A stretch of 45,327 bases of DNA. Origin: a virus. Lineage: Duplodnaviria; Heunggongvirae; Uroviricota; Caudoviricetes. The stretch is taken from the IMG/VR virus record IMGVR_UViG_2737471992_000006. The stretch is one strand, 5' to 3'. The notes beneath the pieces were generated by a model. That model ran no database searches and was not told the origin of the DNA. It saw nothing but the letters and a program-made list of their open reading frames with translations. The stretch's first letter is position 1, and each line of letters opens with the position of its first letter. The position numbers and the translations under genes are program-made. Shown here piece after piece: positions 3,221 through 45,327 of the stretch.

Positions 3221-5283
3221 TCCACAACCTCCCCAAGCTGCGCATCTGTTAGCTCTTTATGCCAGAGACGAAAATTCCTCACATGCCCAAATAAATGGCG
3301 TAATCCTGCTGTAGTTTGTCCACCAATGCGAATGGTTGCTGTACTCCGGATATATTCCCATTTGGTTTTAGTTTCGCTGCTTAACTTACCGTTACTGACT
3401 ACACATGTGGACCGTTCGGACTTTACCCGCATACCAATAAGCATTTTTTCCAGCCCGGCATTTTCATTTATTCGTCGGTCTGAACCACCTATATCGCAAT
3501 ACGGAAAACCGTCGTACCCACCTGATGAACCAAACCCCATTACGATCCCCGCTCCGGTTTGATGACCGCCGGTATCAAAAACACGCGGCGCTACATTTGG
3601 CGTTTTATACCAGTTCTTATGTACCTCACAAAGAACCGTAAAAGGAAGATTATAAAGGTTATTCTTGATTGGGACTGTCACCATATCGCTTGCCCGCGTT
3701 GCCGGTGTCGTCCCCGTAACAATAAAAGATGATGTGCCTGTACCAGCCTCAATCTGTGGAGTGGTTACATCGAGATAATCCCCTGATGCAACCATCTGCC
3801 CTGTATCCGGAGAATACTGGACAAAACCACCAACCGTATTTTCTGTTGTATCTGCTTTTAATGTAGCCTCAAAAAATATCCAGCCAGTTGCATCATCCTT
3901 AACAGACCTTGCTGTAACACGGCTTGTCTGACCTGTCTTGCTAATTATGCGGGTGGTAAGGTTCAGGTTTGCTGCTCCTATTGATGTCCTTACCTCCCCA
4001 TCATAATGTTCAAATAAAATACGAACGGCGATATTATCAACTTCACTTTTTACCCGACAGGATATAGTTACATGCTTTTCGTCCCCTGAAGTATCAACCC
4101 CTCCGGTACTCGAATACAGTCCGATAATGGTATGCGCTTTACTTGTACCAACAATCGAATCCTGTACGACAAACCGGCCATAATTAAACCCGAAACTATC
4201 TGTGCCTGTTTCTGTAACGTCCAGTGAAGTTGACTTATTCCACTTCGAAGGGTCTGTACTGTTCTGGAAGAAGTTCGTTCTTTGTCCCTCAATAAGCAGG
4301 CCATCACACTCAAATCGCGGCTCATTAATTTCCGCCGTTTTCAGTTCGCCAGATTTGTTGATATATGTTGCCGTTGATGCGCGACTGAAATTAACCTGTT
4401 TATCACTGGCAACCTGAACCACATTATCACCAATCTTCACTTTTTTATAACCCGGAGAATAGCCCGTAATCATATCCAGCGAATCATTAAAGGGTATCCA
4501 CACATCCGGCAGCGGCTGTAAAACATATCTGTACGGCTCTGCTGTCTGGTTTGCGTATTCTCTGGCAGCATCTTCACTTGCTTTTGCTGCCGTCTGGCTT
4601 GCTGCCGATGCTTTCGCCGAGTTCGCCGCCGCTGTTTCGCTCACCTTTGCGTTGGCTTCACTGTCTTTGGCATTCGTCTCACTGGTTTTCGCTGCCGTCT
4701 GGCTGGATTTTGCGTTTTTTTCGCTGGCCTTTGTGGCTGTCTCGCTATTTTTCGCGCTGGTTTCTGATTTTTTGGCTGCTGTCGCGGAGTTTGCCGATGC
4801 AGTCTGCGAGGCCGCTGCCGCCTGTGCGCTGTTAGCTGCATTCGTTTCTGAGGTTTTCGCCGCATTCTTCGATGAGGCTGCTGCCGTTTCGGATTTCTTT
4901 GCCGCCGCTGCACTCTGTGATGACGCTCCGGCATGACGTGCCACTTCATTCACCATCAGCTCAAAACGGCGCAGTGCCTCCGGACGGGCATCATCCTCCG
5001 TCATGGCACCGAGAAAATCATTCAGCGTACCTGGTCTGGAACCTTCATAGACGGTAATGGTCCCGGCATGTGAAGGTGGAAAACCTTCAACCAGCAGGGT
5101 GACGCTGTACTGACCATGCTCAACATCCATGCTGTAACGCCCGGCTTCATCCGGATTTTCAGAGGCCACCGTGTTCACCAGTACCGTGGTGCTGTTACGC
5201 TTTGCCTTCAGTTGAATAGTGCAGTTCTGTATTGGTTTTCCCGCACCATCTTTCAGCACACCTGAGATTTTTACTGCTGCCAT
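3217..5283 (-). CDS. stf: side tail fibre protein (lambda Stf-like N-terminus, divergent C-terminal receptor-binding region)
   Basis: N-terminal ~120 aa closely resemble lambda Stf (MAAVKISGVLKDG...TITVYEGSRPGTLNDFL); ATG at 5283 preceded by GGAG; central Ala/Ser/Thr/Lys repeats; C-terminus resembles a lectin/LamG-like jelly-roll (my reading). Confidence 0.85.
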   Translation of the reverse strand: MAAVKISGVLKDGAGKPIQNCTIQLKAKRNSTTVLVNTVASENPDEAGRYSMDVEHGQYSVTLLVEGFPPSHAGTITVYEGSRPGTLNDFLGAMTEDDARPEALRRFELMVNEVARHAGASSQSAAAAKKSETAAASSKNAAKTSETNAANSAQAAAASQTASANSATAAKKSETSAKNSETATKASEKNAKSSQTAAKTSETNAKDSEANAKVSETAAANSAKASAASQTAAKASEDAAREYANQTAEPYRYVLQPLPDVWIPFNDSLDMITGYSPGYKKVKIGDNVVQVASDKQVNFSRASTATYINKSGELKTAEINEPRFECDGLLIEGQRTNFFQNSTDPSKWNKSTSLDVTETGTDSFGFNYGRFVVQDSIVGTSKAHTIIGLYSSTGGVDTSGDEKHVTISCRVKSEVDNIAVRILFEHYDGEVRTSIGAANLNLTTRIISKTGQTSRVTARSVKDDATGWIFFEATLKADTTENTVGGFVQYSPDTGQMVASGDYLDVTTPQIEAGTGTSSFIVTGTTPATRASDMVTVPIKNNLYNLPFTVLCEVHKNWYKTPNVAPRVFDTGGHQTGAGIVMGFGSSGGYDGFPYCDIGGSDRRINENAGLEKMLIGMRVKSERSTCVVSNGKLSSETKTKWEYIRSTATIRIGGQTTAGLRHLFGHVRNFRLWHKELTDAQLGEVVE
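4560..4950. repeat. in-frame tandem repeats encoding the KxSExxAxxS shaft of Stf
   Basis: Reiterated gc-rich units produce long spurious ORFs in all other frames here. Confidence 0.6.
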
Positions 5284-5347
5284 ATCCACTCCACAAAAAA
5301 GCCCGCCTGAACCGGCGGGCTGTCATAACACTGTGTTACCTGGCTAA

Positions 5348-5947
5348 TCAGAACTTATAACCGACACCCACGATGAAACCGTCAGCGCGCCAGTCGCCAC
5401 TGCCGGAGCCTTCATAAGCAATATCAATGGCCACGGATTCGGTCGGGTTAAACTGCACGCCAGCCCCCCACGCCAGAGACGTGTTGCTGTGGCGATCGTC
5501 ATCACTTCCGGTCAGCACGTCGTGCGTTTTCCCCTTGTTGTCAGTTACGCGGAGATAATCCCCGGAGAACGTCGAAACACGGCTGTAAGCCACACCAGCC
5601 ATCGCATACGCGCTGAACCATTCATTCACGCGCACAGACGGCCCCGCCATTACGCTGAACCAGCGGTTACGCACGGAATCTTCATGCCAGCGGGTATCGC
5701 TGTAGTGCGTTTTTTTCTCATCTTCAGCATTGGCATAACTGAAGGACGTAATCAGCCCCAGCGTGTCCGTAAACTCATAACGGTATTTCACGTTAATCCC
5801 GTTCAGATTATCGCTGCCGGGAGCGTTCGTACGGGCATGAAGATACCCTGTGCTCAGTGTGGACTGATGTTCAGACGCCCATGCAGGCGCACCGGATACG
5901 GACAGACAGATGGCTGCGGACAAAATGGCTGCACAAACTTTACGCAT
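5348..5947 (-). CDS. lom: Lom outer-membrane protein (Ail/Lom family)
   Basis: 199 aa, near-identical in pattern to lambda Lom (signal peptide, ...GFIVGVGYKF end). Confidence 0.9.
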   Translation of the reverse strand: MRKVCAAILSAAICLSVSGAPAWASEHQSTLSTGYLHARTNAPGSDNLNGINVKYRYEFTDTLGLITSFSYANAEDEKKTHYSDTRWHEDSVRNRWFSVMAGPSVRVNEWFSAYAMAGVAYSRVSTFSGDYLRVTDNKGKTHDVLTGSDDDRHSNTSLAWGAGVQFNPTESVAIDIAYEGSGSGDWRADGFIVGVGYKF

Positions 5948-6014: not shown

Positions 6015-9000
6015 TCAGCTAATCGTGATGCCTGCAGTGGCTTTCTTCATCACAACAACCAGCAAATCGCTGATACTTGCTGTGGGATACCAGCCATTTA
6101 CCCACCATGCTGATACAGAAAACTCCAGCGTCATGTGGCCGCGACCAGCAGGCATATCAATAACACCACTGTAAACCAGCGTATTATCCAGCGCGGTACG
6201 GTTATAAATTTCAGCACCGTTTTTCTTCACTATCAGGCGGCATGACGAATAAGTATCGCTGTTCTCCTGCTCATGTCTGGCACCGCTGAAAGCCACCGCC
6301 GGAATAACAATCTGCCGGTTAAACGGCTGATCGTCATAAACCCTGACGGTAATGGTTCCTGATGGCCAACGCTTCGGTGCACGGGAGTCACGAGGGAAAG
6401 CCTTACCCACTGTTTTAACGAGATCGCCTTCAATCTGGTTTGCAGACAGTTTCCCTCTGATGACACAGTTCTCGTTAATGGTGACATTATTGAGCGTGCC
6501 GGTATTCGCCGTGATGGCTCCACTGATATCCGCATTGCGGGCTGTCAGCCTGCCATCCGGCGTCAGGGAAAACGTAGGAGGATTGCCGGATGACGTGATG
6601 CTCACCGCAAACAGTCGCTTCAGGAACACGTCGTTCATGAACAGCTGATTCCCCTGCGCCACAAACAGCGGCGTGGTGTTGCCGTTCTCCGGGGTAATCA
6701 TCGCGATACGGTCCGCCTGCAGCAGAATACTGCTCAGCGTCTGACCATCAACATCCTCAATCCCCGCGCCAATCCCGGCCACATAGGGAATACCGTTTTT
6801 TGTTTTCTGCACCTTCAGCATATACATGGCATTCAGCTCATTGCGCGTGTCTGACTGAACCCGCTGGATTTGCTGTATGGTCACGGCCTGGTCACCCAGC
6901 TTTTTATCCGTGGTCGAGGTAATTTCACTCCCTTTTTTATCCACGTACTGGCGGACCTGTGCTATCTGTCGGGCGTTTTCTGACTGCCCCTGGCTGACAG
7001 TCTGTGAGATTTCACTGCTCACCCGGTCCACTTTCTGGCTCACCTGCGCGATGGCCAGTGTCTGGTCCTCATTCTTTTTCGCAACCAGCTGCGTGAGGCT
7101 GTTTTCCGCCTTCCCGATTTTCCGGGTCACTTCTGCGATATCCGTGTCCATCCGCTGACGGATATCTTCTTCCAGTTGCGTGACCTCCGTACGCAGCGCT
7201 GAAGCATCAATGCGCTCTTTCAGTGCCTGGCCCAGAAGCGTCTCATCTATCAGCCCCCGGAAAATTTCCAGATACCCTTCACCATCATTGCTGGGCTGCC
7301 CGCTGGCTTCCACAAAAGCAGATTTTCCCACCAGGTTGACGCTTCGCACGTAAAACCAGAAATCCGTCCCCGGCTTAATCCGGCTCCCCTGGACAGTCCA
7401 CTGACTGCCGGTCCCCAGATAACGGGCAGATTTTTCCACCTGTGCTGTGTTCGTGATGCGTTTTTCTGAGAACCAGAATTCAAACTGTACCGTCGGGTCA
7501 TACACCGCAAGACGCGGGACCGCCGTTATCTGAAAATACCCCGGCGTCAGCTCAATGGTGGCGGGTTTTGCAGGTGCGTTAATCCGGAACGATACCGACG
7601 CCGGATCGCCCTGCTGTCCCCGGGCATTTACCGCCCGGACCGTCAGCGTGTAACGCCCCAGCGCCAGCTGCCTGAAGCGGTAAGTGGTTTCCGCCGTCCG
7701 GGCCGTGCTGACCAGCCGCTCACTGCCGTCATCCGCTGTTACGGTCAGACGGAGCAGGAAGCTCACGCCCTTCACCACCTTCGGCGTGTCCCAGCGCGCC
7801 AGCACCTGATATTCCCCGCTGTCTGCGGTAACTTCGGCGGTCAGGTGCTGCACCGCTGGCGGCGTGACACCATTCACCGTGCCGCTCTGGTCGCCGTCAA
7901 AGTGCGCCCCGTTATCCACGATGGCCTCTTTTGCCGGTACATGCTGCACGGCGGTGATGGCATGCGTACCGTCGTCATTCTCACGGATACTCACACAGCG
8001 GAACAGGCGCTGGCGCAGCGTCGGCAGCTTCAGCCCCCACACGCTGTATCCGGCAACGCCGTCAGGAACACGGCTCACTTTCACCTTCACACCGTCGGTG
8101 ACGGACTGGACCTCCACGCTGACCGGATTCCCACTTCCGTCAACCAGGCTTATCAGCGTGGTGCCGGAGGATGACAGCATGATTTCACGGTCGAGCGTCA
8201 GCGTCCGGGTCTGGCTGTTCACCGCCAGCACGCGACCACCGGTGCTGATACCGGCATAGTCATCATCACAGATTTCAATGACATCGCCCGGCACATGGCG
8301 AAGCCCTTCAGCACCCACGCTGAAGTCCACGGTCTGCGTTTCCAGCAGCTCTGTTTTAATCAGCCACAGCCCGGCGCGGTGTGCCTGCCCCCGGCTGGTA
8401 CAGCCAAAGGCATCCATCTTCGTGACATTACGACCGTAACGGGCAATGGCCCGCGTGTCCTCCACAAGCTCTGTCGCCGTCTCCCAGCCGTTATCCGGAT
8501 CAATCCAGTTCACCTCAACGGCATTATGACGGTCCTTCAGGGCGCTGAAGCTGTAGCGGAACGGCGCGCCATCATCCGGCATCACCACATTACTGCGGTT
8601 ATAGGTCCACACCTTATCCGACGGTCGGTCCTGCACGAACGTCAGCGTCTGCCCGTTCCATACCGGCATACAGCGCATCGCCGAGCAGAAATCACTGAGC
8701 ACATCCCACGCCTTGCGCTGTGTGGTCAGGTAAGCGTTACAGGTGATGCGCGGCTCCGTGCCACCAAAGCCATCCGGCACTGACTGGTCGCAGTACTGGC
8801 CGATGACATACAGCGCCCATTTATCCACATCCGCCGCACCAAGACGTTTCCCCATGCCGTAGCGCGGGTGGGTCAGCATATCCCACAGACACCATGCCAT
8901 GTTGTTGCTGTATGCTGGCTTAAACGTTCCGTCCCAGATACCGCTGTATTGCCGCGTCTGCGGGTTATAGTTCGACGGCACCTGCAGAATGCGCCCGCGA

Positions 9001-9713
9001 AGATGATAATTACGGCTCACCTGCTGGCTGCCGAACTGCTCCGAGTCCACCTGCACGCCGACCAGTGCCGTGTTCGGGTAGCACTGTTTCACATCGATGA
9101 TTTCGGTGTATGACGACCAGAGCGTTTTGTTCTGCAGCTGGTCTGTGGTGCTGTCCGGCGTCATCCTGCGCATCCGGATATTAAACGGGCGCGGCGGCAG
9201 GTTACCCACCACCACCGAGGCCAGATACTGCGAGGTGGTTTTGCCCTTAATGGTGATGTCTTTTTCCGTCACCCAGCCACCGTTACGCTGTATCTGAACC
9301 AGCAGGCGGACTTCCGACGGATTCCTGTCACCCTTTGAGGTGGTTTCCACCAGTGCCTGCACGCCGAAAGTAAAACGCAGTCGGTCAATGTTTGCCGACG
9401 TGATGGCCCGGGTGATCGGCGTGTCATATTTCACTTCCGTACCCAGCACCGTCTCGGAGCCGGAGGATTCAAATCCCTCCGGCGGAGTCTGCTCCTGCTC
9501 ACCTGCCCGGAACACCACCGTGACACCGGAGATGTTGGTATTCCCCTCAGTGTCCAGCACCGGCGTACTGTTCAGCAGCACGCTTTTTAATCCATCCACC
9601 GGACCTTCAATCGGCCCTTCACTGATGGCATCAATCACACTCAGCAACTGCGTAGATTTCAGGTTGTCCTTCGCTTCGCGCGGGGTATGCCCCTTACTGC
9701 TGCCTTTACCCAT
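6015..9713 (-). CDS. J: host-specificity / central tail fibre protein J
   Basis: 1232 aa, collinear with lambda gpJ from [15 protein letters not shown] through the C-terminal receptor-binding region. Confidence 0.9.
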
Positions 9714-34107: not shown

Positions 34108-34926
34108 TCACCCCCTGAATCCTGCCGGGATCTGGCTGTAGTCCACGTTGTCGTAACTGGCTTTGAAGTACGGGTCCTCGCGTCTGGCTGCAGATACCGC
34201 AGGAACTTCCCAGGATTCTTCGAAATGACGATCCGGACCAAAGAACGTGACAGCCTGTTTCACAAATTGTGTGCCGCTGTTACCCATCGCAGATACCCAG
34301 CCCGCGTAGCGTTTCACACCTTCCAGCATGGTTTCGGGGTTTACTCCCTCATTCAAACGGGCTTTCCAGGCTTTGAAGGCTGCAGATTTTGAATTGCCAC
34401 CAGCACGTTTGGGATATGCCAGCCATGCCTGCTCAAACTCCGGAGAGTATTCCGGTCGGTTTGAACGAACTCGCACGGACTCATCAACTGATGCACCAAC
34501 AGCTATTGGTTCATTGACTGGTTCTTTGACTGGTTCAAAAGAGTGACTGGTTCTGGGTGAATCTCCTGCACTACCCCCTGGTGCAACTCCTGCACTACCT
34601 GGTGAATTTGCTGCACCAGATAGTGAATTATTTGCACTACCCCCTAGTGAATCTCCTGCACCATCCAGATGAAGGAGATAGATATTACTTGAGTTACCTT
34701 TTTCACCTTTCCGGGTGACTTTTTTTACCAGCCCGGACTCACAGAGGGCCGCAATATGATTCATCACAGAACGTTTGCTAATCTCGCACTGATCAGCGAT
34801 ATGCTGATAGCTGGGCCAGCACTCACCCTGATCGCTGGCATTATCAGCCAGCTTGATCAGAACTAGTTTTCGCAATGGATTACCCACTCGAATTTTCATC
34901 GCTTTCACCATCAGCTCCATACTCAT
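34108..34926 (-). CDS. replication initiator (lambda O-like, iteron-binding) containing the origin
   Basis: 272 aa; winged-helix N-terminus, Gly/Ser/Ala-rich linker encoded by the iterons, C-terminal domain; GGAGGTG Shine-Dalgarno. Confidence 0.75.
   Translation of the reverse strand: MSMELMVKAMKIRVGNPLRKLVLIKLADNASDQGECWPSYQHIADQCEISKRSVMNHIAALCESGLVKKVTRKGEKGNSSNIYLLHLDGAGDSLGGSANNSLSGAANSPGSAGVAPGGSAGDSPRTSHSFEPVKEPVNEPIAVGASVDESVRVRSNRPEYSPEFEQAWLAYPKRAGGNSKSAAFKAWKARLNEGVNPETMLEGVKRYAGWVSAMGNSGTQFVKQAVTFFGPDRHFEESWEVPAVSAARREDPYFKASYDNVDYSQIPAGFRG
34511..34705. repeat. origin of replication: 3x GACTGGTTC and ~5 iterons (CTGCACTACC..TGGTGAAT at ~22-bp spacing) plus AT-rich tract
   Basis: Direct repeats at 34515..34556 and 34567..34672, then an AT-rich segment at 34673..34705, all inside the O-like gene as in ori-lambda. 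Confidence 0.6.
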
Positions 34927-37617: not shown

Positions 37618-38047
37618 AAAAGAAACATGCCACAGGCAAGATTAAACAAAATTTGGTTGTAACACGGCGTATGGCACATGCGTCGTTAGCGGTCTGGGGA
37701 CGTTAAAGGGGACAATCCACTCCTTGCTCGGGCAAACAAACCAGGTAGCCGGAATGTGCAAGTCAATGAGGATGCTGATAAGACGCCTAACCAGCGTGGC
37801 GATTCGGTTTGACGCCTGGGAAGAGACCAGGGTGCAACGATGAGGGCATTTATGGAACCGCGACAAAGTGTGGTGCCGTAACTGGCTAAGTGCTCTCAGC
37901 GTTGTGGTGAATGCGCAGGCTGATGCGCGAAAGACATTGCAGCTATTGCGGAAAAGAGCTGTTCGGCGGGGCAATTAAACGCCCGTGAGAGTCTGAAATA
38001 ACCGCAAGCCGGAGATCAGCACCGGTCACCACAACAGCCACTGCTTT

Positions 38048-38094
38048 GGCGGTACCAGTTTGTACACTTGCTTCCGGCTGGTACCGCTCTTTTT
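38048..38094 (+). terminator. intrinsic terminator in the early-left leader (tL1-like), overlapping a boxA-like motif
   Basis: 10-bp stem GCGGTACCAG / CTGGTACCGC, then TCTTTTT; CGCTCTTTTTACAAAA resembles boxA. Confidence 0.55.
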
Positions 38095-38231
38095 ACAAAA
38101 CAGAGAAGAGCATCACCGGACGACGGGCTCATAACCCAATCCATCCGGGCGGCAGTCACCGCAGGTGTTCTTCTCTGTTTTGTGGAGAAACCAACCGACC
38201 TTGCAGGGTCGATATGATGAGGAGCAGCAAA

Positions 38232-38594
38232 ATGGCTAGCGAACGCAGTACTGATGTGCAGGCATTTATCGGGGAGCTGGACGGCGGCGTATTTGAAACC
38301 AAAATCGGCGCAGTTCTCAGTGAAGTCGCTTCCGGTGTGATGAACACGAAAACCAAAGGTAAGGTCTCGCTCAACCTGGAAATCGAACCGTTTGATGAGA
38401 ACCGTGTGAAAATAAAACACAAACTCTCATATGTTCGCCCGACTAACCTCGGGAAAATTTCCGAAGAAGACACCACCGAAACGCCGATGTATGTCAATCG
38501 CGGTGGTCGCCTGACTATTCTGCAGGAAGACCAGGGACAATTACTGACTCTTGCCGGTGAACCTGACGGAAAACTCCGCGCAGCAGGTCATTAA
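38232..38594 (+). CDS. hypothetical early-left protein (resembles CPS-53 prophage YfdP by recollection)
   Basis: 120 aa from the ATG at 38232 (GAGGAG Shine-Dalgarno); the ORF-track start at 38046 lies inside the terminator and is rejected. Confidence 0.6.
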   Translation: MASERSTDVQAFIGELDGGVFETKIGAVLSEVASGVMNTKTKGKVSLNLEIEPFDENRVKIKHKLSYVRPTNLGKISEEDTTETPMYVNRGGRLTILQEDQGQLLTLAGEPDGKLRAAGH

Positions 38595-38659
38595 TATCGT
38601 TCTTAATTAACTGATTATTTATCTCATCACTGAATATCTTTATATAGTGAGGACTTATT

Positions 38660-39484
38660 ATGTCTCAGAACTTAGACGCAACCGCAATTAATCAAATCCA
38701 TGCCCTTATTTCTGCTCAGGGTGTTAATGAAATTATCAGTAAGATTGGTGCCGATGCTGTGGCATTGCCTGAGAATTTCCGCATTCATGATCTGGAAAAA
38801 TTTAATTTAAATCGCTTCCGTTTCCGTGGTGCGCTTTCCACTGCCAGCATCGATGACTTTACCCGTTATTCTAAAGATCTTGCAGATGAAGGCACCCGCT
38901 GCTTTATCGATGCCGATAATATGCGAGCCGTCAGTGTGCTTAACCTGGGTACTATTGATGAACCAGGTCACGCAGATAACACCGCCACCCTCAAACTGAA
39001 AAAGACAGCACCGTTTTCTGCTCTGTTGTCTGTTAATGGCGAGCGTAACTCCCAGAAGTCACTGGCAGAATGGATTGAAGACTGGGCCGACTACCTTGTG
39101 GGCTTTGATGCTAATGGTGACACCATTCAGGCAACCAAAGCGGCTGCGGCAGTCCGTAAAATCACAATTGAAGCAAACCAGACCGCTGATTTTGAAGACA
39201 ATGACTTCAGCGGCAAACGCTCTCTGATGGAGTCTGTCGAAGCGAAAACCAAAGACATTATGCCAGTGGCATTTGAATTTAAATGCGTTCCGTTTGAAGG
39301 CCTGAAAGAACGTCCGTTTAAATTACGCCTCAGCATTATCACTGGCGATCGTCCTGTACTGGTTCTGCGCATTATTCAGCTGGAAGCGATGCAGGAAGAA
39401 ATGGCTAACGAATTTCGTGATCTGCTTGTTGAGAAATTCAAAGACAGCAAAGTAGAAACCTTTATTGGTACTTTCACCGCCTGA
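38660..39484 (+). CDS. hypothetical 274-aa early protein (YfdQ-like)
   Basis: Intact ORF with GAGGA Shine-Dalgarno; recalled similarity to the uncharacterised CPS-53 protein YfdQ. Confidence 0.7.
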
Positions 39485-39612
39485 TTTCATTACTGCAAAT
39501 GCCCCTGCGGGGGCATTTATGGAAACGTAATTAACTCAATAATCACCGGATGGTGAGAGCTTCCTTTTAGCAGAATTCAGCGCGGTGCAGCGCATATAAA
39601 GTGGAGAACGAA

Positions 39613-40149
39613 ATGTCATTTATTAAAACTTTTTCCGGGAAGCATTTTTATTATGACAAGATAAATAAAGACGACATCGTGATTAACGATATCGCAGTTT
39701 CCCTTTCAAATATCTGTCGCTTTGCAGGACATCTTTCACACTTCTACAGTGTCGCCCAGCATGCGGTGCTTTGCAGCCAGCTGGTGCCGCAGGAATTTGC
39801 TTTTGAAGCGTTAATGCATGATGCAACAGAAGCATATTGCCAGGACATCCCCGCGCCACTGAAACGACTTCTTCCTGACTATAAACGGATGGAAGAAAAA
39901 ATAGACGCCGTAATCCGTGAGAAATACGGGTTACCTCCTGTTATGAGCACGCCAGTGAAATATGCCGATCTCATTATGCTGGCAACCGAACGCCGTGATC
40001 TCGGGCTTGATGATGGCTCTTTCTGGCCTGTTCTGGAAGGTATCCCGGCAACAGAGATGTTCAAAGTTATTCCACTGTCGCCAGGCCATGCCTATGGGAT
40101 GTTTATGGAACGTTTTAACGAGTTATCGGAGTTACGCAAATGCGCATGA
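39613..40149 (+). CDS. HD-domain phosphohydrolase (YfdR-like 5'-deoxynucleotidase)
   Basis: 178 aa from the ATG at 39613 (GGAG Shine-Dalgarno); HD motif residues (H...H ... MHDATEAY). Confidence 0.75.
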   Translation: MSFIKTFSGKHFYYDKINKDDIVINDIAVSLSNICRFAGHLSHFYSVAQHAVLCSQLVPQEFAFEALMHDATEAYCQDIPAPLKRLLPDYKRMEEKIDAVIREKYGLPPVMSTPVKYADLIMLATERRDLGLDDGSFWPVLEGIPATEMFKVIPLSPGHAYGMFMERFNELSELRKCA

Positions 40150-40490
40150 ATGTTTTCGAAATGGAAGGGTTTCTTCGCGGGAAATGTGTACCGCGAGATC
40201 TGAAAGTGAATGAAACAAATGCTGAGTATCTGGTGCGTAAATTCGATGAAGTACGTGCTGAGGCTCGCAACGAGGGTATTAACTATACCGCAAGCCGTCT
40301 TGCTGCTGCTTTCAATCACGGATTTATCAATAAGCCTTTGGCTGAAGTTTTCGACGTTACACGCATGATTCTGTCAGCAAAAGAAGAGTTAGCTAATGAA
40401 TCGCATCCGATTGATGGCCTGTCCGGTGAATATGCAGAGAAATCCCTTGAAGAATGGGCGGAACGGCTTCTCAAAGGAGGCAGCCAGTGA
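40140..40490 (+). CDS. hypothetical 116-aa early protein (YfdS-like)
   Basis: ORF coupled to the neighbouring genes; start at 40140 or 40146 (ATGA overlap). Confidence 0.6.
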   Translation: MRMNVFEMEGFLRGKCVPRDLKVNETNAEYLVRKFDEVRAEARNEGINYTASRLAAAFNHGFINKPLAEVFDVTRMILSAKEELANESHPIDGLSGEYAEKSLEEWAERLLKGGSQ

Positions 40491-40981
40491 CTGGACATGC
40501 AGCAATCCTCGACATGTGCTGTGGCAGTCGCATGTTCTGGTTCGATAAGAATGACGACCGGGCGATATTTAGCGATATCAGAAAGGAAGAGCACACATTG
40601 TGTGATGGACGACGCCTGATTATCAGTCCTGACCTGATAGCTGATTTTCGTGCACTACCATTTGCAGACGCATCCTTTTCGATGGTTGTATTCGACCCTC
40701 CGCATCTTGAGCGTGTTGGTGATAACGCTTGGATGGGAAAGAAATATGGACGGCTGAATAAAGATACCTGGCGTGATGATTTACGGCAGGGATTCAAAGA
40801 AGCCTTTCGTGTGTTGTGGCCATACGGCGTTCTGATTTTTAAATGGAATGAAACGCAAATACCTGTTCGCCAGATATTGGCACTGACCGACAGAAAGCCT
40901 GTTATCGGTCAACGAACAGGAAAGGGTGACAAGACCCACTGGATTATTTTTATGAAGGAGGCAACCAGTGAGCGAGATTGA
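40487..40981 (+). CDS. small amino-methyltransferase (motif I DMCCGS, motif IV FDPPH)
   Basis: 164 aa from the GTG at 40487, preceded by AAGGAGG and overlapping the upstream stop (GTGA); the target (DNA or other) cannot be told from sequence. Confidence 0.6.
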   Translation: MTGHAAILDMCCGSRMFWFDKNDDRAIFSDIRKEEHTLCDGRRLIISPDLIADFRALPFADASFSMVVFDPPHLERVGDNAWMGKKYGRLNKDTWRDDLRQGFKEAFRVLWPYGVLIFKWNETQIPVRQILALTDRKPVIGQRTGKGDKTHWIIFMKEATSERD

Positions 40982-41567
40982 TTATCAGGCGCTACGGGAA
41001 CGTTATTCACCTAAGCCAGTACCTGAATGCTCTGTTTGTGGCGAGGAAATGTCAATACAGCGTATATCTGGAGCACATGTCACTTATGCCTGCTCCGGTT
41101 ATGGTGGTGATGGAGATTTCAAAATTGGTCGCACACTTGCCGACGAGCATTATGAAAAATCACGCGTAACAGTAGTTGATGACAGTGACCCTGATGTGAT
41201 TGCACTACTGGACGAACTGGAGGCAGCAAAATTAAAACTCAACGAGCAGCGTGAGTATTACGAAGGTGTTATCTCGGATGGGAGTAAGCGTATTGCTGAA
41301 CTGGAAGCACGGGAAATAAAACCAGCCAAAGGCGAAGTTCTTGTCGTTGTCTCTGGTTTTACTGGTTGCGGGAAAAGCGCCATTGCCGGGGAAATAGAAA
41401 TTGCGATGAAAGCTATTGGTGTGCCGGTTCAATGGACTAATGGCGATGCAGAAAAGCATATGACCGGCGCTGACTGGCTGACAGCGATTGAGATGTACAA
41501 ACCAAATGTGCGCATCGTGGAAGTTAATGTGTCACGCGCCGCAGGCATTCGCATCAAAGGAGAGTGA
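40968..41567 (+). CDS. hypothetical protein with N-terminal CxxC zinc-ribbon-like motif, coiled coil and C-terminal Walker-A-like P-loop
   Basis: 199 aa; GTG start after AAGGAGG; CSVCGEE near the N-terminus; GFTGCGKS near the C-terminus. Confidence 0.6.
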   Translation: MSEIDYQALRERYSPKPVPECSVCGEEMSIQRISGAHVTYACSGYGGDGDFKIGRTLADEHYEKSRVTVVDDSDPDVIALLDELEAAKLKLNEQREYYEGVISDGSKRIAELEAREIKPAKGEVLVVVSGFTGCGKSAIAGEIEIAMKAIGVPVQWTNGDAEKHMTGADWLTAIEMYKPNVRIVEVNVSRAAGIRIKGE

Positions 41568-41568
41568 G

Positions 41569-41760
41569 ATGAACGGACAAATATCAATTGTTCGACCGGG
41601 AGCATGTGACGATTGCGAGATACGAATGATTATTCGTCTGGCGAGGGGGAAAACAATAACTGCTCTCATTACTCCTGAAAATCTCGCATTAGCATTAACA
41701 GGAAAGTCAGACCTGCCAGTAGAGCTAAAGCTGCGAAATATTGAGATTAAAGTGAAATAG
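41569..41760 (+). CDS. hypothetical small protein
   Basis: 63 aa; ATG at 41569, 2 nt after the upstream stop, with AAAGGAGAG Shine-Dalgarno. Confidence 0.5.
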   Translation: MNGQISIVRPGACDDCEIRMIIRLARGKTITALITPENLALALTGKSDLPVELKLRNIEIKVK

Positions 41761-41762
41761 TT

Positions 41763-42440
41763 ATGAATACTCTTACCAAAGAATGGTTACAGAACACGAT
41801 TACCGGAATTGAGTCGATAATAGACGATAAATCGTTTGTATGTAGTGAAATAGCATTCGAAATAGGTCAGGTTAACAACATACTTACCGCATTTAAAATT
41901 GCACTGGCATCGCTGGCAGCAAAACCGGTGGTTTACATGTGGGATAGCGAAAGAAAAGATATTGATGCCCCTGGGTATTATCGGACTGAGCATTTAGTGT
42001 TCGCTGAGAGTAGTGTTAAGAAATGGGGAGGACGAGTTGTTCCACTTTACACCGCCCCGCCAGCGACGGTAGTACCGGATGAACGTGCAGCTTTCAATGC
42101 CTGGAACAACGACGAGAACCTACCCATAGCTGGTGTCGGCGCAAAAAACGCTGCCTGGTTAGCTTGGCAAGCCCGCGCTGAGTTGGGCCGCTCGTTAGCC
42201 GTAAACTCTCCGGTAACTCCGGATGGTTGGATAAGCTGTAGTGATCGAATGCCTGAAAAGGGCCAGAACGTGCTTATTTCGGTGAATTTCGATAGCTCTC
42301 TGGTTGAACCGCTAATATGCTCCGCACGCTATACCGGAAGCACCTTTCGGCGCGGAGATGCAACGATTAAGCCGGGTAATGGTATTGAGCAAGCAACTCA
42401 CTGGATGCCGCTACCGGAACCGCCGCAGGAGGTGAAGTGA
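41763..42440 (+). CDS. Ead/Ea22-like protein with C-terminal DUF551-like domain
   Basis: 225 aa; C-terminal ...THWMPLPEPP motif typical of DUF551 as I recall it. Confidence 0.65.
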   Translation: MNTLTKEWLQNTITGIESIIDDKSFVCSEIAFEIGQVNNILTAFKIALASLAAKPVVYMWDSERKDIDAPGYYRTEHLVFAESSVKKWGGRVVPLYTAPPATVVPDERAAFNAWNNDENLPIAGVGAKNAAWLAWQARAELGRSLAVNSPVTPDGWISCSDRMPEKGQNVLISVNFDSSLVEPLICSARYTGSTFRRGDATIKPGNGIEQATHWMPLPEPPQEVK

Positions 42441-43012
42441 TGAACAACTTAATGATCGACCTTGAGACGATGGGGAAAAATAAGGATGCACCGATCGTTT
42501 CCATTGGCGCGGTGTTCTTCACTCCAGAAACCGGAGACATCGGACAAGAATTCTATACGGTGGTTAGCCTGGAAAGTGCTATGGGGCAAGGAGCTACACC
42601 TGACGGCGATACCATCCTGTGGTGGTTGAAACAAAGCCCTGAAGCGCGAGCTGCAATCTGTATTGATGATACTTTGTCGATCAGCGATGCTCTCTCAGAA
42701 CTAAACCATTTCATTAACCGGCACGCAGACAATACGAAATATTTAAAAGTCTGGGGTAACGGGGCCACCTTCGACAACGTAATTTTACGTGGAGCTTATG
42801 AGCGAGCAGGACAAATCTGCCCGTGGGCATACTGGAATGACCACGATGTACGCACGATCGTTACGCTTGGGCGTTCCATCGGATTCGACCCCAAAATGGA
42901 CATGCCTTTCGATGGCGAACGGCACAACGCCCTGGCCGATGCCCGTCATCAGGCAAAATATGTTTCCGCTATCTGGCAGAAATTAATTCCTGCCACCAGC
43001 ACAGAATTATGA
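42440..43012 (+). CDS. DnaQ-like 3'-5' exonuclease (DEDDh)
   Basis: 190 aa; IDLETMG (Asp/Glu motif) near the N-terminus and HNALADA near the C-terminus; GGAGGTG Shine-Dalgarno; ATG overlaps the upstream stop. Confidence 0.75.
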   Translation: MNNLMIDLETMGKNKDAPIVSIGAVFFTPETGDIGQEFYTVVSLESAMGQGATPDGDTILWWLKQSPEARAAICIDDTLSISDALSELNHFINRHADNTKYLKVWGNGATFDNVILRGAYERAGQICPWAYWNDHDVRTIVTLGRSIGFDPKMDMPFDGERHNALADARHQAKYVSAIWQKLIPATSTEL

Positions 43013-43048
43013 TTTTCCCGGGTGCAGCCGGTTTTGATGGAGAAAATT

Positions 43049-43330
43049 ATGAACACCTTGTTTTTACTGATGGCTGAATTCAATACCCCTAACATTGAAC
43101 TCTCAGCAGTTAGCCAAAAGTACTTTGGCATGAGTCCAGCCACGGCAGAAGCAAAAGCAAACGCTTGTAAGTTGCCCGTTCCAACATATCGCATCGGCAC
43201 ATCACAAAAAGCAAAACGTTGCATCAATATTCAGGATCTTGCGGAATACATAGACAAAAGACGAGAAGAAGGACGTATCGAGTGGGAACAGGTCAGAACA
43301 GGCAAACAGAAGGGCAAAGAACATCACTAA
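43049..43330 (+). CDS. PrtN/excisionase-like DNA-binding protein (Xis candidate)
   Basis: 93 aa from the ATG at 43049 (GGAG Shine-Dalgarno); ...LPVPTYRIGTSQKAKRCINIQDLAEYIDKRR pattern of PrtN/AlpA-type excisionases. Confidence 0.6.
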   Translation: MNTLFLLMAEFNTPNIELSAVSQKYFGMSPATAEAKANACKLPVPTYRIGTSQKAKRCINIQDLAEYIDKRREEGRIEWEQVRTGKQKGKEHH

Positions 43331-43332
43331 AG

Positions 43333-43421
43333 AAAAAACGCATAAAGGCCAATGCCGTTCACTTAAGATGAGCGGCTCTGCATTTCACCAGATAATGGTG
43401 TTTTGATATCTTAATTTCCCT
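43333..43421. repeat. left arm of a ~90-bp imperfect inverted repeat flanking the CoiA-like gene
   Basis: Reverse complement of 44585..44674; core tttcaccagataatggtKttttgatatcttaatttccct matches at 38/39, plus cgttcacttaag and aaaaaacgc blocks. Confidence 0.8.
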
Positions 43422-43520
43422 CGGCTCTGATAGTCGTGGGCATTTTGTTATGAACACAATATCCAGAACATCCAGCAGATGTTCCTGTCATTTCGGGATG
43501 GCTACGAGGATAAGACAGCA

Positions 43521-44555
43521 TCAGAAAAACATTTCAGCTTTTTTACCATCAAATATCCACCCGCTGGATAAGATTTTCATATTGCTAGCATAAGTAAAAG
43601 TAAATTCTATCATTATCTTTTGTTTATCATTCGGATAGTCGAAAACCTCTAATAAAAAGCAATCTCCTATAAGTGAATAACAATGTATGCAACCGTTAGA
43701 TAAATAACAATCACTGTCTCTGTCCTTAACAGTACCAATTCCAGCCGCCCAGAGTTTTTTGTTATCCACGTGAGTGGCTATTAGTTCTTTGACATCAGAA
43801 TCACGAAAAGATAAAAACTTGACGAATACTGATTTACTGTAAACAGAAATCCCCCTGATAATTCCAGTTCGTTTTTTACATCTCCAGCATTTTGTAACTC
43901 GCGATTCTATTTTTGCAGTCAGCACATCCCCAACCTTTGGGAACCATAATAGCTTTCTGGCGAAAACACCCGCGATAAACTCCCTGACACTAATCCCAAA
44001 CTGCGGTAGATACAAGTCCCCATTTTCATTCTGACGCACACCAAAAACAGGTAAATCGTAGCTATGGTATATATCCCCACCATGCTCTTTACTTCCTTTA
44101 CGTAACTTTCGCAACCACAGTGCACGGACTCCTGATGCGATATATCGTTTTTGACGTTCTTTAAACTCATCGTCTTTTTGCGGTGATAGCTGTACTTCGA
44201 AAACCAGTTTCGCATTATTTCTGGTACAAAACACATCGGCAATCCATTCTTCTCCTGCTGGGGTCACCCCTTGTTTTTCGGTAGTAACTGACCAGCCAGC
44301 ATCACTGGCTAATTTTGCGATTAAGAATTTGAGATATAAATGTTCTGCGCTTTCTTTCGCATACAGGCAATCGCTTTTGGATTTATGGGAAAAGTAATAG
44401 TTATTAAGTTTACTTGTTTTAGGTATACCAAGCTGGCCACAGCACGACATAAACAAAGACTGGCTTTTATATGTCTGTTTAAGATGTTCCCATTCCTGAG
44501 AGTTAAATTCAAAAGAATGAATTTCTTTTCCGTTAAGTGACGCTTTTAGTGGCAT
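43521..44555 (-). CDS. CoiA-like (competence-protein-CoiA family) predicted nuclease
   Basis: 344 aa; N-terminal zinc-finger pattern F.SCCG...YFSHKSKSDC...KESAEHLYLK characteristic of CoiA proteins, then a PD-(D/E)xK-like core (IADV ... FEVQ); AT-rich gene. Confidence 0.7.
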   Translation of the reverse strand: MPLKASLNGKEIHSFEFNSQEWEHLKQTYKSQSLFMSCCGQLGIPKTSKLNNYYFSHKSKSDCLYAKESAEHLYLKFLIAKLASDAGWSVTTEKQGVTPAGEEWIADVFCTRNNAKLVFEVQLSPQKDDEFKERQKRYIASGVRALWLRKLRKGSKEHGGDIYHSYDLPVFGVRQNENGDLYLPQFGISVREFIAGVFARKLLWFPKVGDVLTAKIESRVTKCWRCKKRTGIIRGISVYSKSVFVKFLSFRDSDVKELIATHVDNKKLWAAGIGTVKDRDSDCYLSNGCIHCYSLIGDCFLLEVFDYPNDKQKIMIEFTFTYASNMKILSSGWIFDGKKAEMFF

Positions 44556-44584
44556 TCATGCTACCTGTATTTACCCTCCCAGCA

Positions 44585-44674
44585 AGGGAAATTAAGATAT
44601 CAAAAAACCATTATCTGGTGAAACGCAGTACCACCACACTTAAGTGAACGACATTATGCCTAAAGGCGTTTTTT
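44585..44674. repeat. right arm of the inverted repeat
   Basis: See left arm; the outer boundary (gcgtttttt) abuts the stop of the 57-aa gene. Confidence 0.8.
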
Positions 44675-44694
44675 AAAAAATCACCACCTATGAA

Positions 44695-44868
44695 TCATAC
44701 TGCTTTGCAACGACGAAGCTTACCCTGCTGCTCTTTACCAGAGACAGTAGCGTGAGTGAACGCATTAGGAGCAGCCTTCATCAGAACTTCAACAGCCGCA
44801 CCCATACCTACGAATGCTTTCATTGTGTCGAACTTAACCTGTGGCTTGGTTGCTTTTTGATCTTCCAT
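44695..44868 (-). CDS. 57-aa small protein, second gene of an AT-rich two-gene operon (not in the ORF track)
   Basis: ATG at 44868 preceded by GGAG (8-nt spacer); TGA at 44697..44695; 39 nt downstream of the 139-aa gene. Confidence 0.45.
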   Translation of the reverse strand: MEDQKATKPQVKFDTMKAFVGMGAAVEVLMKAAPNAFTHATVSGKEQQGKLRRCKAV

Positions 44869-44907
44869 AGAAAACTCCAGAAGCTATACCGAAAAAATTC
44901 CTGTTGT

Positions 44908-45327
44908 TTACTCATCATCAATAGATGATACGCAATATTTATTTTTAAATTTAAGGTTCTTTGGCGTAACTTCATCAGATATATCAAAACCGTCCAGAAT
45001 TCTATTGAATGTAGCTTCTGGCATATCATCATGAACAAAAATCTCACCCGATCGCTGCTTTCTAACCATGTTATCCACTCGCCAAATTATAGCTTCAGCG
45101 TAAACAACATAACTTGGATGCTTGATAAAGCGATGATCACCAGAATTCAAGACGCAAGACGGATCGTGGGGGACACCATCCTTGATACTAGAAATATTAA
45201 CAACTAAAACACAATAACAATCGTTAACGGGGTAATAAACAGGATCATTACAAATCACATGAAGATGATTGCATGGCCCAGTTGGGGCAAGCACAGTTCC
45301 TTTCCTGTATGGCTGATAATCCGTCAT
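44908..45327 (-). CDS. 139-aa hypothetical protein, first gene of the operon (Cys/His/Asp-rich)
   Basis: Complete ORF (ATG is the last three bases of the window, TAA at 44908..44910); AT-rich; no recognised family. Confidence 0.55.
   Translation of the reverse strand: MTDYQPYRKGTVLAPTGPCNHLHVICNDPVYYPVNDCYCVLVVNISSIKDGVPHDPSCVLNSGDHRFIKHPSYVVYAEAIIWRVDNMVRKQRSGEIFVHDDMPEATFNRILDGFDISDEVTPKNLKFKNKYCVSSIDDE

Follow-up and report, generated by a model that had tools for sequence, protein, structure and literature searches.

We analyzed a 45,327-nt stretch of DNA from a Caudoviricetes virus (Duplodnaviria; Heunggongvirae; Uroviricota; IMG/VR record IMGVR_UViG_2737471992_000006), here called the window, and in it a 17-nt sequence, AAGGAGGCARCCAGTGA, that starts two consecutive genes, one for a small DNA methyltransferase and one for a 199-aa protein. 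The reading that we consider probable is that this 17-mer is a boundary at which genes of the early-left (PL) operon are exchanged between phages, and that the 199-aa product is a modular Ead/Ea22-like protein carrying a P-loop-like head. Module exchange at this locus is supported and is not new; the boundary principle has already been published. What the locus adds is a clean, quantifiable case of lambdoid early operons whose genes are replaced one at a time at short conserved junctions that are also ribosome-binding sites, which is of use for models of phage mosaicism. The sole part that may be new biology is a strictly conserved mini P-loop-like module, found from enterobacterial to Burkholderia and Stenotrophomonas phages, for which Pfam has no model.

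Recurrence of the 17-mer at junctions of unrelated genes

An exact-match scan of IMG/VR for the 17-mer matched at least 120 stretches; the junctions analyzed are the 111 with sufficient flanking sequence among the matches listed. They fell into 25 upstream classes (defined by the 40 nt upstream) and 12 downstream gene classes, joined in 47 combinations, so that the same junction sequence is common to otherwise unrelated gene pairs. The downstream genes were mostly Ea22-like (MSxIxYQAL..) and also included the methyltransferase and nine other unrelated classes of open reading frame (ORF). Most upstream genes ended in ..QLRKGGNQ* with the stop codon inside GTGA, and several read ..KEATSE(RD)*. 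As the 17-mer is translated in more than one frame by the genes upstream, its conservation is at the DNA level, independent of reading frame. The initial annotation, made from the window alone, had named presence in related prophages as a check on the junction; these combinations, and an exact copy in phage HK620, bear it out.

Homology breakpoints of related phages also fall on the 17-mer. On base-by-base inspection at the first copy, loci that are 92–98% identical upstream diverge completely right after GTGA, where a different gene stands, and the upstream neighbor of the window methyltransferase is followed by other genes in other loci. In the converse case, the methyltransferase (97–98% identity) follows unrelated genes elsewhere, and identity picks up again ~16 nt ahead of the 17-mer. 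Cassettes bracketed by two copies were found in five other loci, with many different genes and repeat spacings. The 17-mer boundary joined to the Ea22 leader was present in 244 of 50,697 phage records, among them Shiga toxin (Stx) phages, other Escherichia phages, and Salmonella P22-like, Shigella and P1-like phages. The particular arrangement at 40140–41760 is rare, being covered to at least 80% in 9 of 5,426 E. coli genomes (100% identical in NR3736). A scan of genome contigs for the 17-mer was uninformative, with at least 120 matches that included unrelated taxa and ~140 chance matches estimated in 596 Gb.

Judged from these sequence comparisons, the boundary recurs, is combinatorial, and is the exact place on which exchanges fell. 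The initial annotation had read the repeat as a module-exchange scar; the breakpoints and the unrelated gene pairs at the 17-mer agree with exchange, and what they outline is a widespread, recurrent boundary rather than a one-off scar.

Register of the two copies in the window

Each copy consists of an AAGGAGG Shine-Dalgarno sequence, a 6-nt spacer and a GTG start codon, and ends in GTGA (Table 1). The two copies, which are the only exact matches to the pattern in the window, differ at one position (16/17 identical) and are separated by 481 nt. When 80 nt on each side were aligned, the flanks showed no similarity, which stopped at the edges of the 17-mer; the likeness thus extends past the Shine-Dalgarno sequence to the spacer and GTGA and to nothing beyond the 17 nt. 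The initial annotation had correctly recognized a real repeat that starts first the methyltransferase and then the 199-aa gene, but it had placed the copies at 40473..40489 and 40954..40970, 1 nt to the left of their true positions, and had counted 7 nt in the spacer. It had also described the GTG as overlapping an upstream TGA. This holds for copy 1, where the methyltransferase start (GTG at 40487) overlaps the stop of the upstream 116-aa gene (TGA at 40488–40490). At copy 2, where GTG at 40968 starts the 199-aa gene, the TGA at 40969–40971 is out of the methyltransferase frame, and the methyltransferase ends 10 nt later (stop 40979–40981), giving a 14-nt overlap. The 17-mer is consequently read in different frames by the two upstream genes (..LKGGSQ* versus ..MKEATSERD*). 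No RNA family was found by Rfam in 38000–43500, including in permissive E-value mode.

Exchange at the boundary and other accounts of the repeat

In the mechanism that we propose, the 17-mer is a conserved inter-gene boundary in the PL operon (early-left; exo-xis/ea) that lambdoid and P22-like phages carry. It is at the same time a portable translation-initiation unit, made of a strong Shine-Dalgarno sequence (AAGGAGG), a spacer fixed at 6 nt and a GTG start that in most cases overlaps the TGA of the gene before it. Many otherwise unrelated genes carry the boundary at their ends. Since both partners of a phage–phage or phage–prophage encounter have it, recombination within this short homology would allow whole genes to be swapped, inserted or deleted with translation undisturbed. 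In the window prophage, the methyltransferase is one such cassette, lying between hkaH-like and ead/ea22-like genes with a copy of the boundary on either side, and a second boundary, ..ATCAAAGGAGAGTGAGATG, closes the ea22-like gene. Exchange may proceed through homologous recombination within the boundary, carried out by host or phage recombinases, and the boundary may act in translational coupling that is kept after each swap.

An account that we regard as quite improbable holds that the 17-mer is kept only as a signal for translation initiation and coupling, with joints arising anywhere by illegitimate recombination and selection retaining those at gene ends. It fits the perfect Shine-Dalgarno sequence, the good spacing and the start codon overlapping a stop, and other junctions of the operon likewise show Shine-Dalgarno-like elements near stop/start overlaps; illegitimate recombination is moreover the mainstream alternative model of mosaicism in PMC3029335. 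Selected random joints, however, would not place an identical 17-nt stretch on each of two unrelated partners, as seen across 47 combinations. The CARCCA spacer is conserved at least as well as the Shine-Dalgarno sequence, to the point that near-variants of the 17-mer have a mutated AAGGAGG and retain GCAACCAGTGA, and to our knowledge translation has no need for this fixed spacer. Conservation also often reaches ~16 nt further upstream (..GCCGCCCAGCTTCGCA) across unrelated genes. A purely translational account leaves the fixed spacer and the frame-independent conservation unexplained, although selection for expression probably helps to maintain the 17-mer.

Direct repeats that flank a single promoterless gene, in a layout like that of gene cassettes, could also be the target-site duplication, or the mobile-element or integron-like cassette ends, of a site-specific methyltransferase insertion. 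We give this very little credence: brackets are formed around many different genes at many spacings, and methyltransferase genes differ from one another by a 1-nt indel in the copy at their 3' end. Both the target-site-duplication and the integron readings were rejected, given that the 17-mer stands singly at more than 100 junctions that lack the methyltransferase, and in HK620, and that no transposase or integron integrase lies nearby. The resemblance to integron gene cassettes is limited to promoterless genes that are parted by short conserved sites and swapped as units; unlike integrons, the window has neither an integron integrase nor the imperfect inverted-repeat structure of attC, its site doubles as ribosome-binding site and start codon, and the mechanism is likely to be general or phage-encoded homologous recombination.

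Correspondence with HK620 and a second boundary

A reference phage for the boundary is HK620 (AF335538), which has the 17-mer exactly at its hkaH/hkaG junction. HkaH and the window 116-aa protein have a common N-terminus, and HkaG is an Ead/Ea22-like protein with N- and C-terminal modules other than those of the 199-aa protein. On this comparison, the gene order in the window is hkaH-like, methyltransferase cassette, hkaG-like and hkaF-like.

A different short sequence, AAAGGAGAGTGAGATG, joins the 199-aa gene to the following 63-aa gene and is exact in HK620 at hkaG/hkaF. Together with the preceding codons it encodes ..AAGIRIKGE*, a tail common to unrelated proteins. It occurred 70 times in the fetched loci, with 17 upstream and 18 downstream classes, and by these counts is as combinatorial as the 17-mer.

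Short conserved boundary sequences in the mosaicism of lambdoid phages are discussed in PMC3029335, which cites Clark et al. 2001 (on HK620) and Susskind and Botstein 1978. The window boundaries resemble these in being short gene-boundary sequences common to unrelated neighbors, in coinciding with breakpoints, in their early-left location, and in that both are exact in HK620 itself. New in the window are the placing of two tandem copies around a methyltransferase cassette and the fact that the 17-mer is read irrespective of frame.

The 199-aa protein as a mosaic member of the Ead/Ea22 family

The initial annotation could assign no function to the 199-aa protein. It matches Pfam PF13935 (Ead_Ea22) over residues 2–87 with 89.7 bits (cut-off 27, E = 3.4e-25), more than 6900 of its homologues are named ead/Ea22-like, and it is the positional equivalent of HK620 hkaG, with the same flanking boundaries and neighbors. 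The gene lies downstream of a cI-like ymfK gene, on the same strand and before a PrtN/xis-like gene, as expected of the early-left (exo-xis/ea) region, and is syntenic with hkaH-hkaG-hkaF in the PL operon of HK620. Ea22 is a pro-lysogenic early protein made of an N-terminal domain, a coiled coil and a variable C-terminal domain, and both tetramer formation and the pro-lysogenic effect are documented only for lambda and Stx Ea22 (PMC10834534, PMC7093339).

The same three parts can be recognized here. An alignment of the protein with its homologues revealed a modular composition, with alternative N- and C-terminal modules (at least three of the latter, of which the window has one) between a conserved leader, MSxIDYQALRE, and a shared tail, RAAGIRIKGE. 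The N-terminal domain is replaceable by other N-terminal domains in this alignment, and the coiled-coil middle segment, which AlphaFold2 (AF2) models as a helix at residues 75–114, varies in length. With HkaG, P22 Ead and lambda Ea22 the protein has in common PF13935 membership, the leader, the coiled coil, the KRIAELE.REI linker and the tail; unlike them, it has a domain with three cysteines and one histidine (CCCH) in place of the usual AAEKAT...FIAA.NP region. Its C-terminal module is neither the C-terminal domain of lambda Ea22, which was solved by nuclear magnetic resonance, nor one of the Stx variants V1–V3 (PMC10834534). An intragenic module junction is visible at 41295–41315, at the linker KRIAELEAREI, right after which the alternative C-terminal modules begin. 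Matches to E. coli genomes end at 41305–41308.

The features that the initial annotation had picked out, namely a CxxC motif (C21-x-x-C24), a coiled coil (here a predicted long helix) and a short P-loop-like end (G130–S137), are all present. The zinc ribbon that it had named was not established: a ribbon has two CxxC knuckles with four cysteines on beta-hairpins, and only C21-x2-C24, C42 and H61 are conserved here (in 54–55 of 55 unique homologues). A Pfam scan of the protein returned no zinc-ribbon family. In the AF2 model, the N-terminal domain (predicted local distance difference test (pLDDT) of ~82–86) forms a beta-hairpin at residues 29–41, after the CxxC. A CCCH zinc site in this domain is plausible.

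In NR3736, the NCBI Prokaryotic Genome Annotation Pipeline (PGAP) calls two ‘incomplete’ ead/Ea22-like pieces, at 40968–41168 and 41211–41567 (4829–5029 and 5072–5428 of locus L001), which would make the 199-aa ORF a pseudogene composed of two Ea22 fragments. This is almost certainly wrong. The ORF is uninterrupted, with a boundary-type start and stop, a database protein identical to its product has 140 member sequences on 60 contigs, and each module is intact in many other proteins; the pseudogene reading was rejected. The split is an artefact that arises when reference proteins align to only parts of a mosaic protein. The locus is also useful for annotation, as an example in which PGAP miscalls a mosaic Ea22-like gene as two pseudogenes.

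We propose that the 199-aa protein is an early protein assembled from exchangeable modules, namely the MSxIDYQALRE leader, a CCCH domain that probably binds zinc, an oligomerizing coiled coil and a head of ~72 aa. If Ea22 of lambda and of Stx phages is taken as a guide, the protein may modulate early development (lysis or lysogeny).

A conserved P-loop-like module at the C-terminus

A full HMMER search with residues 113–199 retrieved 440 representative clusters (defined at 50% identity), 345 of them at E ≤ 1e-10, with the best stretch at residues ~120–192. Of 245 module-bearing proteins examined, 225 had the module at the C-terminal end and 13 at the N-terminal end. In 241 of the 245 the motif G-x-T-G-x-G-K-S was retained, and many other columns were invariant. 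In the window the motif reads G130-F-T-G-C-G-K-S137 and has the surroundings of a Walker A motif, with a hydrophobic strand before it and a helix after it (VLVVVS-GFTGCGKS-AIAGEIEIAMKAIG). Candidates for Walker B, with positions taken from the sequence, are the invariant E185 after V-R-I-V and the near-invariant G159-D160 after strand 2. Isolated phages with the module include phiV10, the O157 typing phages 9 and 10, D6, JL22, a Yersinia phage and Burkholderia phage BcepC6B (gp37), and a Stenotrophomonas genome encodes it as well. The only name obtained from cluster look-ups was ‘hypothetical protein’, and Pfam scans of multidomain proteins that bear the module yielded no informative partner domains. 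Four GC-rich, Stenotrophomonas-like proteins (P0199, P0229, P0240 and P0250) have the module near their N-terminus (residues ~21–96) within long low-complexity mosaics and carry repeated ‘AARQPVGEPV’ and ‘AQAVDLG’ segments; Pfam identified no partner domain in them.

Profile comparisons pointed, below threshold, to adenosine 5'-phosphosulfate (APS) kinase. Of 34 modules, 33 had Pfam APS_kinase (PF01583) as their top match (best E = 5.3e-5, below the curated cut-off), and NCBIfam PRK03846 aligned its positions 20–89 of 202 with module residues 3–72, again below the curated cut-off. The proteins returned by a profile search of PDB were nearly all P-loop proteins, at sub-threshold E values of 0.02–1, and Foldseek comparisons with PDB and BFVD found nothing significant. 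The module is like APS kinase CysC (PF01583; PRK03846) in that a strand, GxxGxGKS, a helix, a strand and (N/D)GD are collinear with the profile at ~20–89, and unlike it in scoring only ~18–20 bits, in spanning about one third of the kinase core and in having neither lid nor substrate-binding part. The most fitting description of the module is a conserved and portable piece of protein, similar to the first third of an APS-kinase-type P-loop fold and short of a complete nucleoside triphosphatase (NTPase); in terms of fold, the head may be likened to the first beta–P-loop–alpha–beta–alpha–beta third of such a kinase.

Structure prediction was equivocal. In the AF2 model of the full-length protein, the C-terminal domain had a pLDDT below 50; modeled alone, it reached 80.6, with a predicted template modeling score (pTM) of 0.69. 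Motif conservation and the sub-threshold APS-kinase matches back the P-loop reading, and the models support it weakly.

Displayed multivalently on the coiled coil, the P-loop-like head may bind either a ligand that bears phosphate, such as a nucleotide, or a partner from the host. A more specific proposal, which we hold to be unlikely, is that the module is an autonomously stable ‘one-third P-loop’ in which a nucleotide or another phosphate ligand is bound only when the module is dimerized or tetramerized on the Ea22 coiled coil; were this true, it would provide a first ligand for the enigmatic Ea22 family and a parallel in nature to the minimal P-loop prototypes made by design. Somewhat unlikely, in our judgment, is that GxTGxGKS is a structural relic that binds no phosphate and that the module serves as a protein–protein interaction or decoy head, for example as a mimic of the N-terminal end of a P-loop kinase of the host. 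The length of only ~72 aa, the uniformly sub-threshold family matches and an AF2 model that is not a clean Rossmann-like sheet all fit a relic or decoy, but the motif is strictly kept among enterobacterial, Stenotrophomonas and Burkholderia-phage versions whose overall identity is only ~55%. Such conservation would be unusual for a non-functional relic, though a structural role could also explain it.

Points against the joint reading

Several observations weigh against the reading of the 17-mer as an exchange boundary and of the 199-aa protein as an Ea22-like protein with a P-loop-like head. For the boundary, the repeat in the window is by itself without significance because ~3 pairs of 17-mers with 16/17 identity are expected by chance per random 45 kb (Markov simulation) and 10 such pairs are present. 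A pattern search, with 2 matches against 0.01 expected, is biased in its expectation, as the pattern was picked after the data were seen. The argument from the repeat count, a 16/17 repeat in 45 kb not being improbable, was dropped, and the weight of the repeat lies in its identical register where two successive genes start and in the way it recurs among other phages. We infer the recombination inside the 17-mer, and the sequence could be maintained in part by selection for strong translation initiation. Likewise, we infer that the 17-mer and the second boundary are the very sequences of Clark et al. 2001.

For the head, no P-loop family hidden Markov model or fold matched at accepted significance, all family matches being below curated thresholds. 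A complete NTPase core would not fit into the module: a full alpha/beta P-loop core has at least five strands in ~150 aa or more, and the module has ~72 aa and stops at the C-terminus of the protein. The P-loop proposed in the initial annotation holds up as a motif and in the profile matches, less so in structure prediction, where the AF2 model of the C-terminal domain alone has no beta-strands assigned. The literature searched on Ea22 does not describe this C-terminal variant and gives it neither ligand nor phenotype.

The methyltransferase cassette and neighboring genes

The 164-aa cassette protein belongs with type II or orphan DNA methyltransferases, having a full-length family match (PADLOC MTase_II at 6.8e-74, profile positions 3–164 of 169; PHROG phrog_954 at 2e-88) and VFDPPH in its sequence. 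In other phages its 3' junction reads AAGGAGGGCAACCAGTGA, in which one extra G gives ..KEGNQ* with the stop within GTGA; a further variant is AAAGAGGCAACCAGTGAGTAA. The methyltransferase 3' ends of two loci (L093 and L117) differ from 40955–40971 of the window by 1 nt in the G-run (AAGGAGGG versus AAGGAGG). This difference toggles the C-terminus between ..KEGNQ* and ..KEATSERD* and leaves the rest of the boundary DNA intact.

The 116-aa protein upstream is itself a hybrid. Residues 1–42 are like YfdS and HK620 HkaH (PHROG phrog_583, with the N-terminus matching HkaH), and residues ~36–116 form an Ea22-type C-terminal module (matching the C-terminal parts of phrog_614 and phrog_368). Its gene has a breakpoint near position 40247 of the window (query position 108), where many phage matches begin. 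PADLOC found no defense-system match for the 199-aa Ea22-like, 116-aa or 63-aa proteins.

Table 1. Features of the early-left segment, with positions in the window.
Feature	Position	Strand	Remarks
116-aa gene upstream of junction 1	40140..40490	+	Hybrid; ends ..EWAERLLKGGSQ*
Boundary copy 1, AAGGAGGCAGCCAGTGA	40474..40490	+	Shine-Dalgarno, 6-nt spacer, GTG overlapping upstream TGA; exact also at HK620 hkaH/hkaG
164-aa small DNA methyltransferase	40487..40981	+	Cassette between the two boundary copies; DPPH motif; same coordinates in PGAP
Boundary copy 2, AAGGAGGCAACCAGTGA	40955..40971	+	GTG at 40968 starts 199-aa gene; TGA out of frame for methyltransferase
199-aa Ead/Ea22-like gene, intact	40968..41567	+	PF13935 match
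N-terminal domain, residues 12–74	41001..41189	+	Candidate zinc ligands C21, C24, C42, H61
Coiled coil / long helix, residues 75–114	41190..41309	+	AF2 helix, pLDDT 81–90; ends in linker ..KRIAELEAREI
C-terminal module, residues 122–187 (~66–72 aa)	41331..41528	+	Walker-A-like G130–S137 at 41355–41378
Second boundary, AAAGGAGAGTGAGATG	41556..41571	+	Joins 199-aa gene to 63-aa gene
63-aa gene	41569..41760	+	90% identical to HK620 HkaF; phrog_1222

Two further regions of the window drew attention. Just past the PrtN/xis-like gene, on the minus strand (window about 43520–45327; 7382–9621 of locus L001), the annotation has a CoiA-like gene, two hypothetical genes and a Panacea-domain gene, which may be cargo or a toxin–antitoxin or defense islet at the prophage end. 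At 34557–34663, inside a minus-strand ORF (34108–34926), near-identical 17-nt direct repeats form two pairs that interleave (34557/34647 and 34567/34633); they could represent iteron-like elements of an origin of replication.

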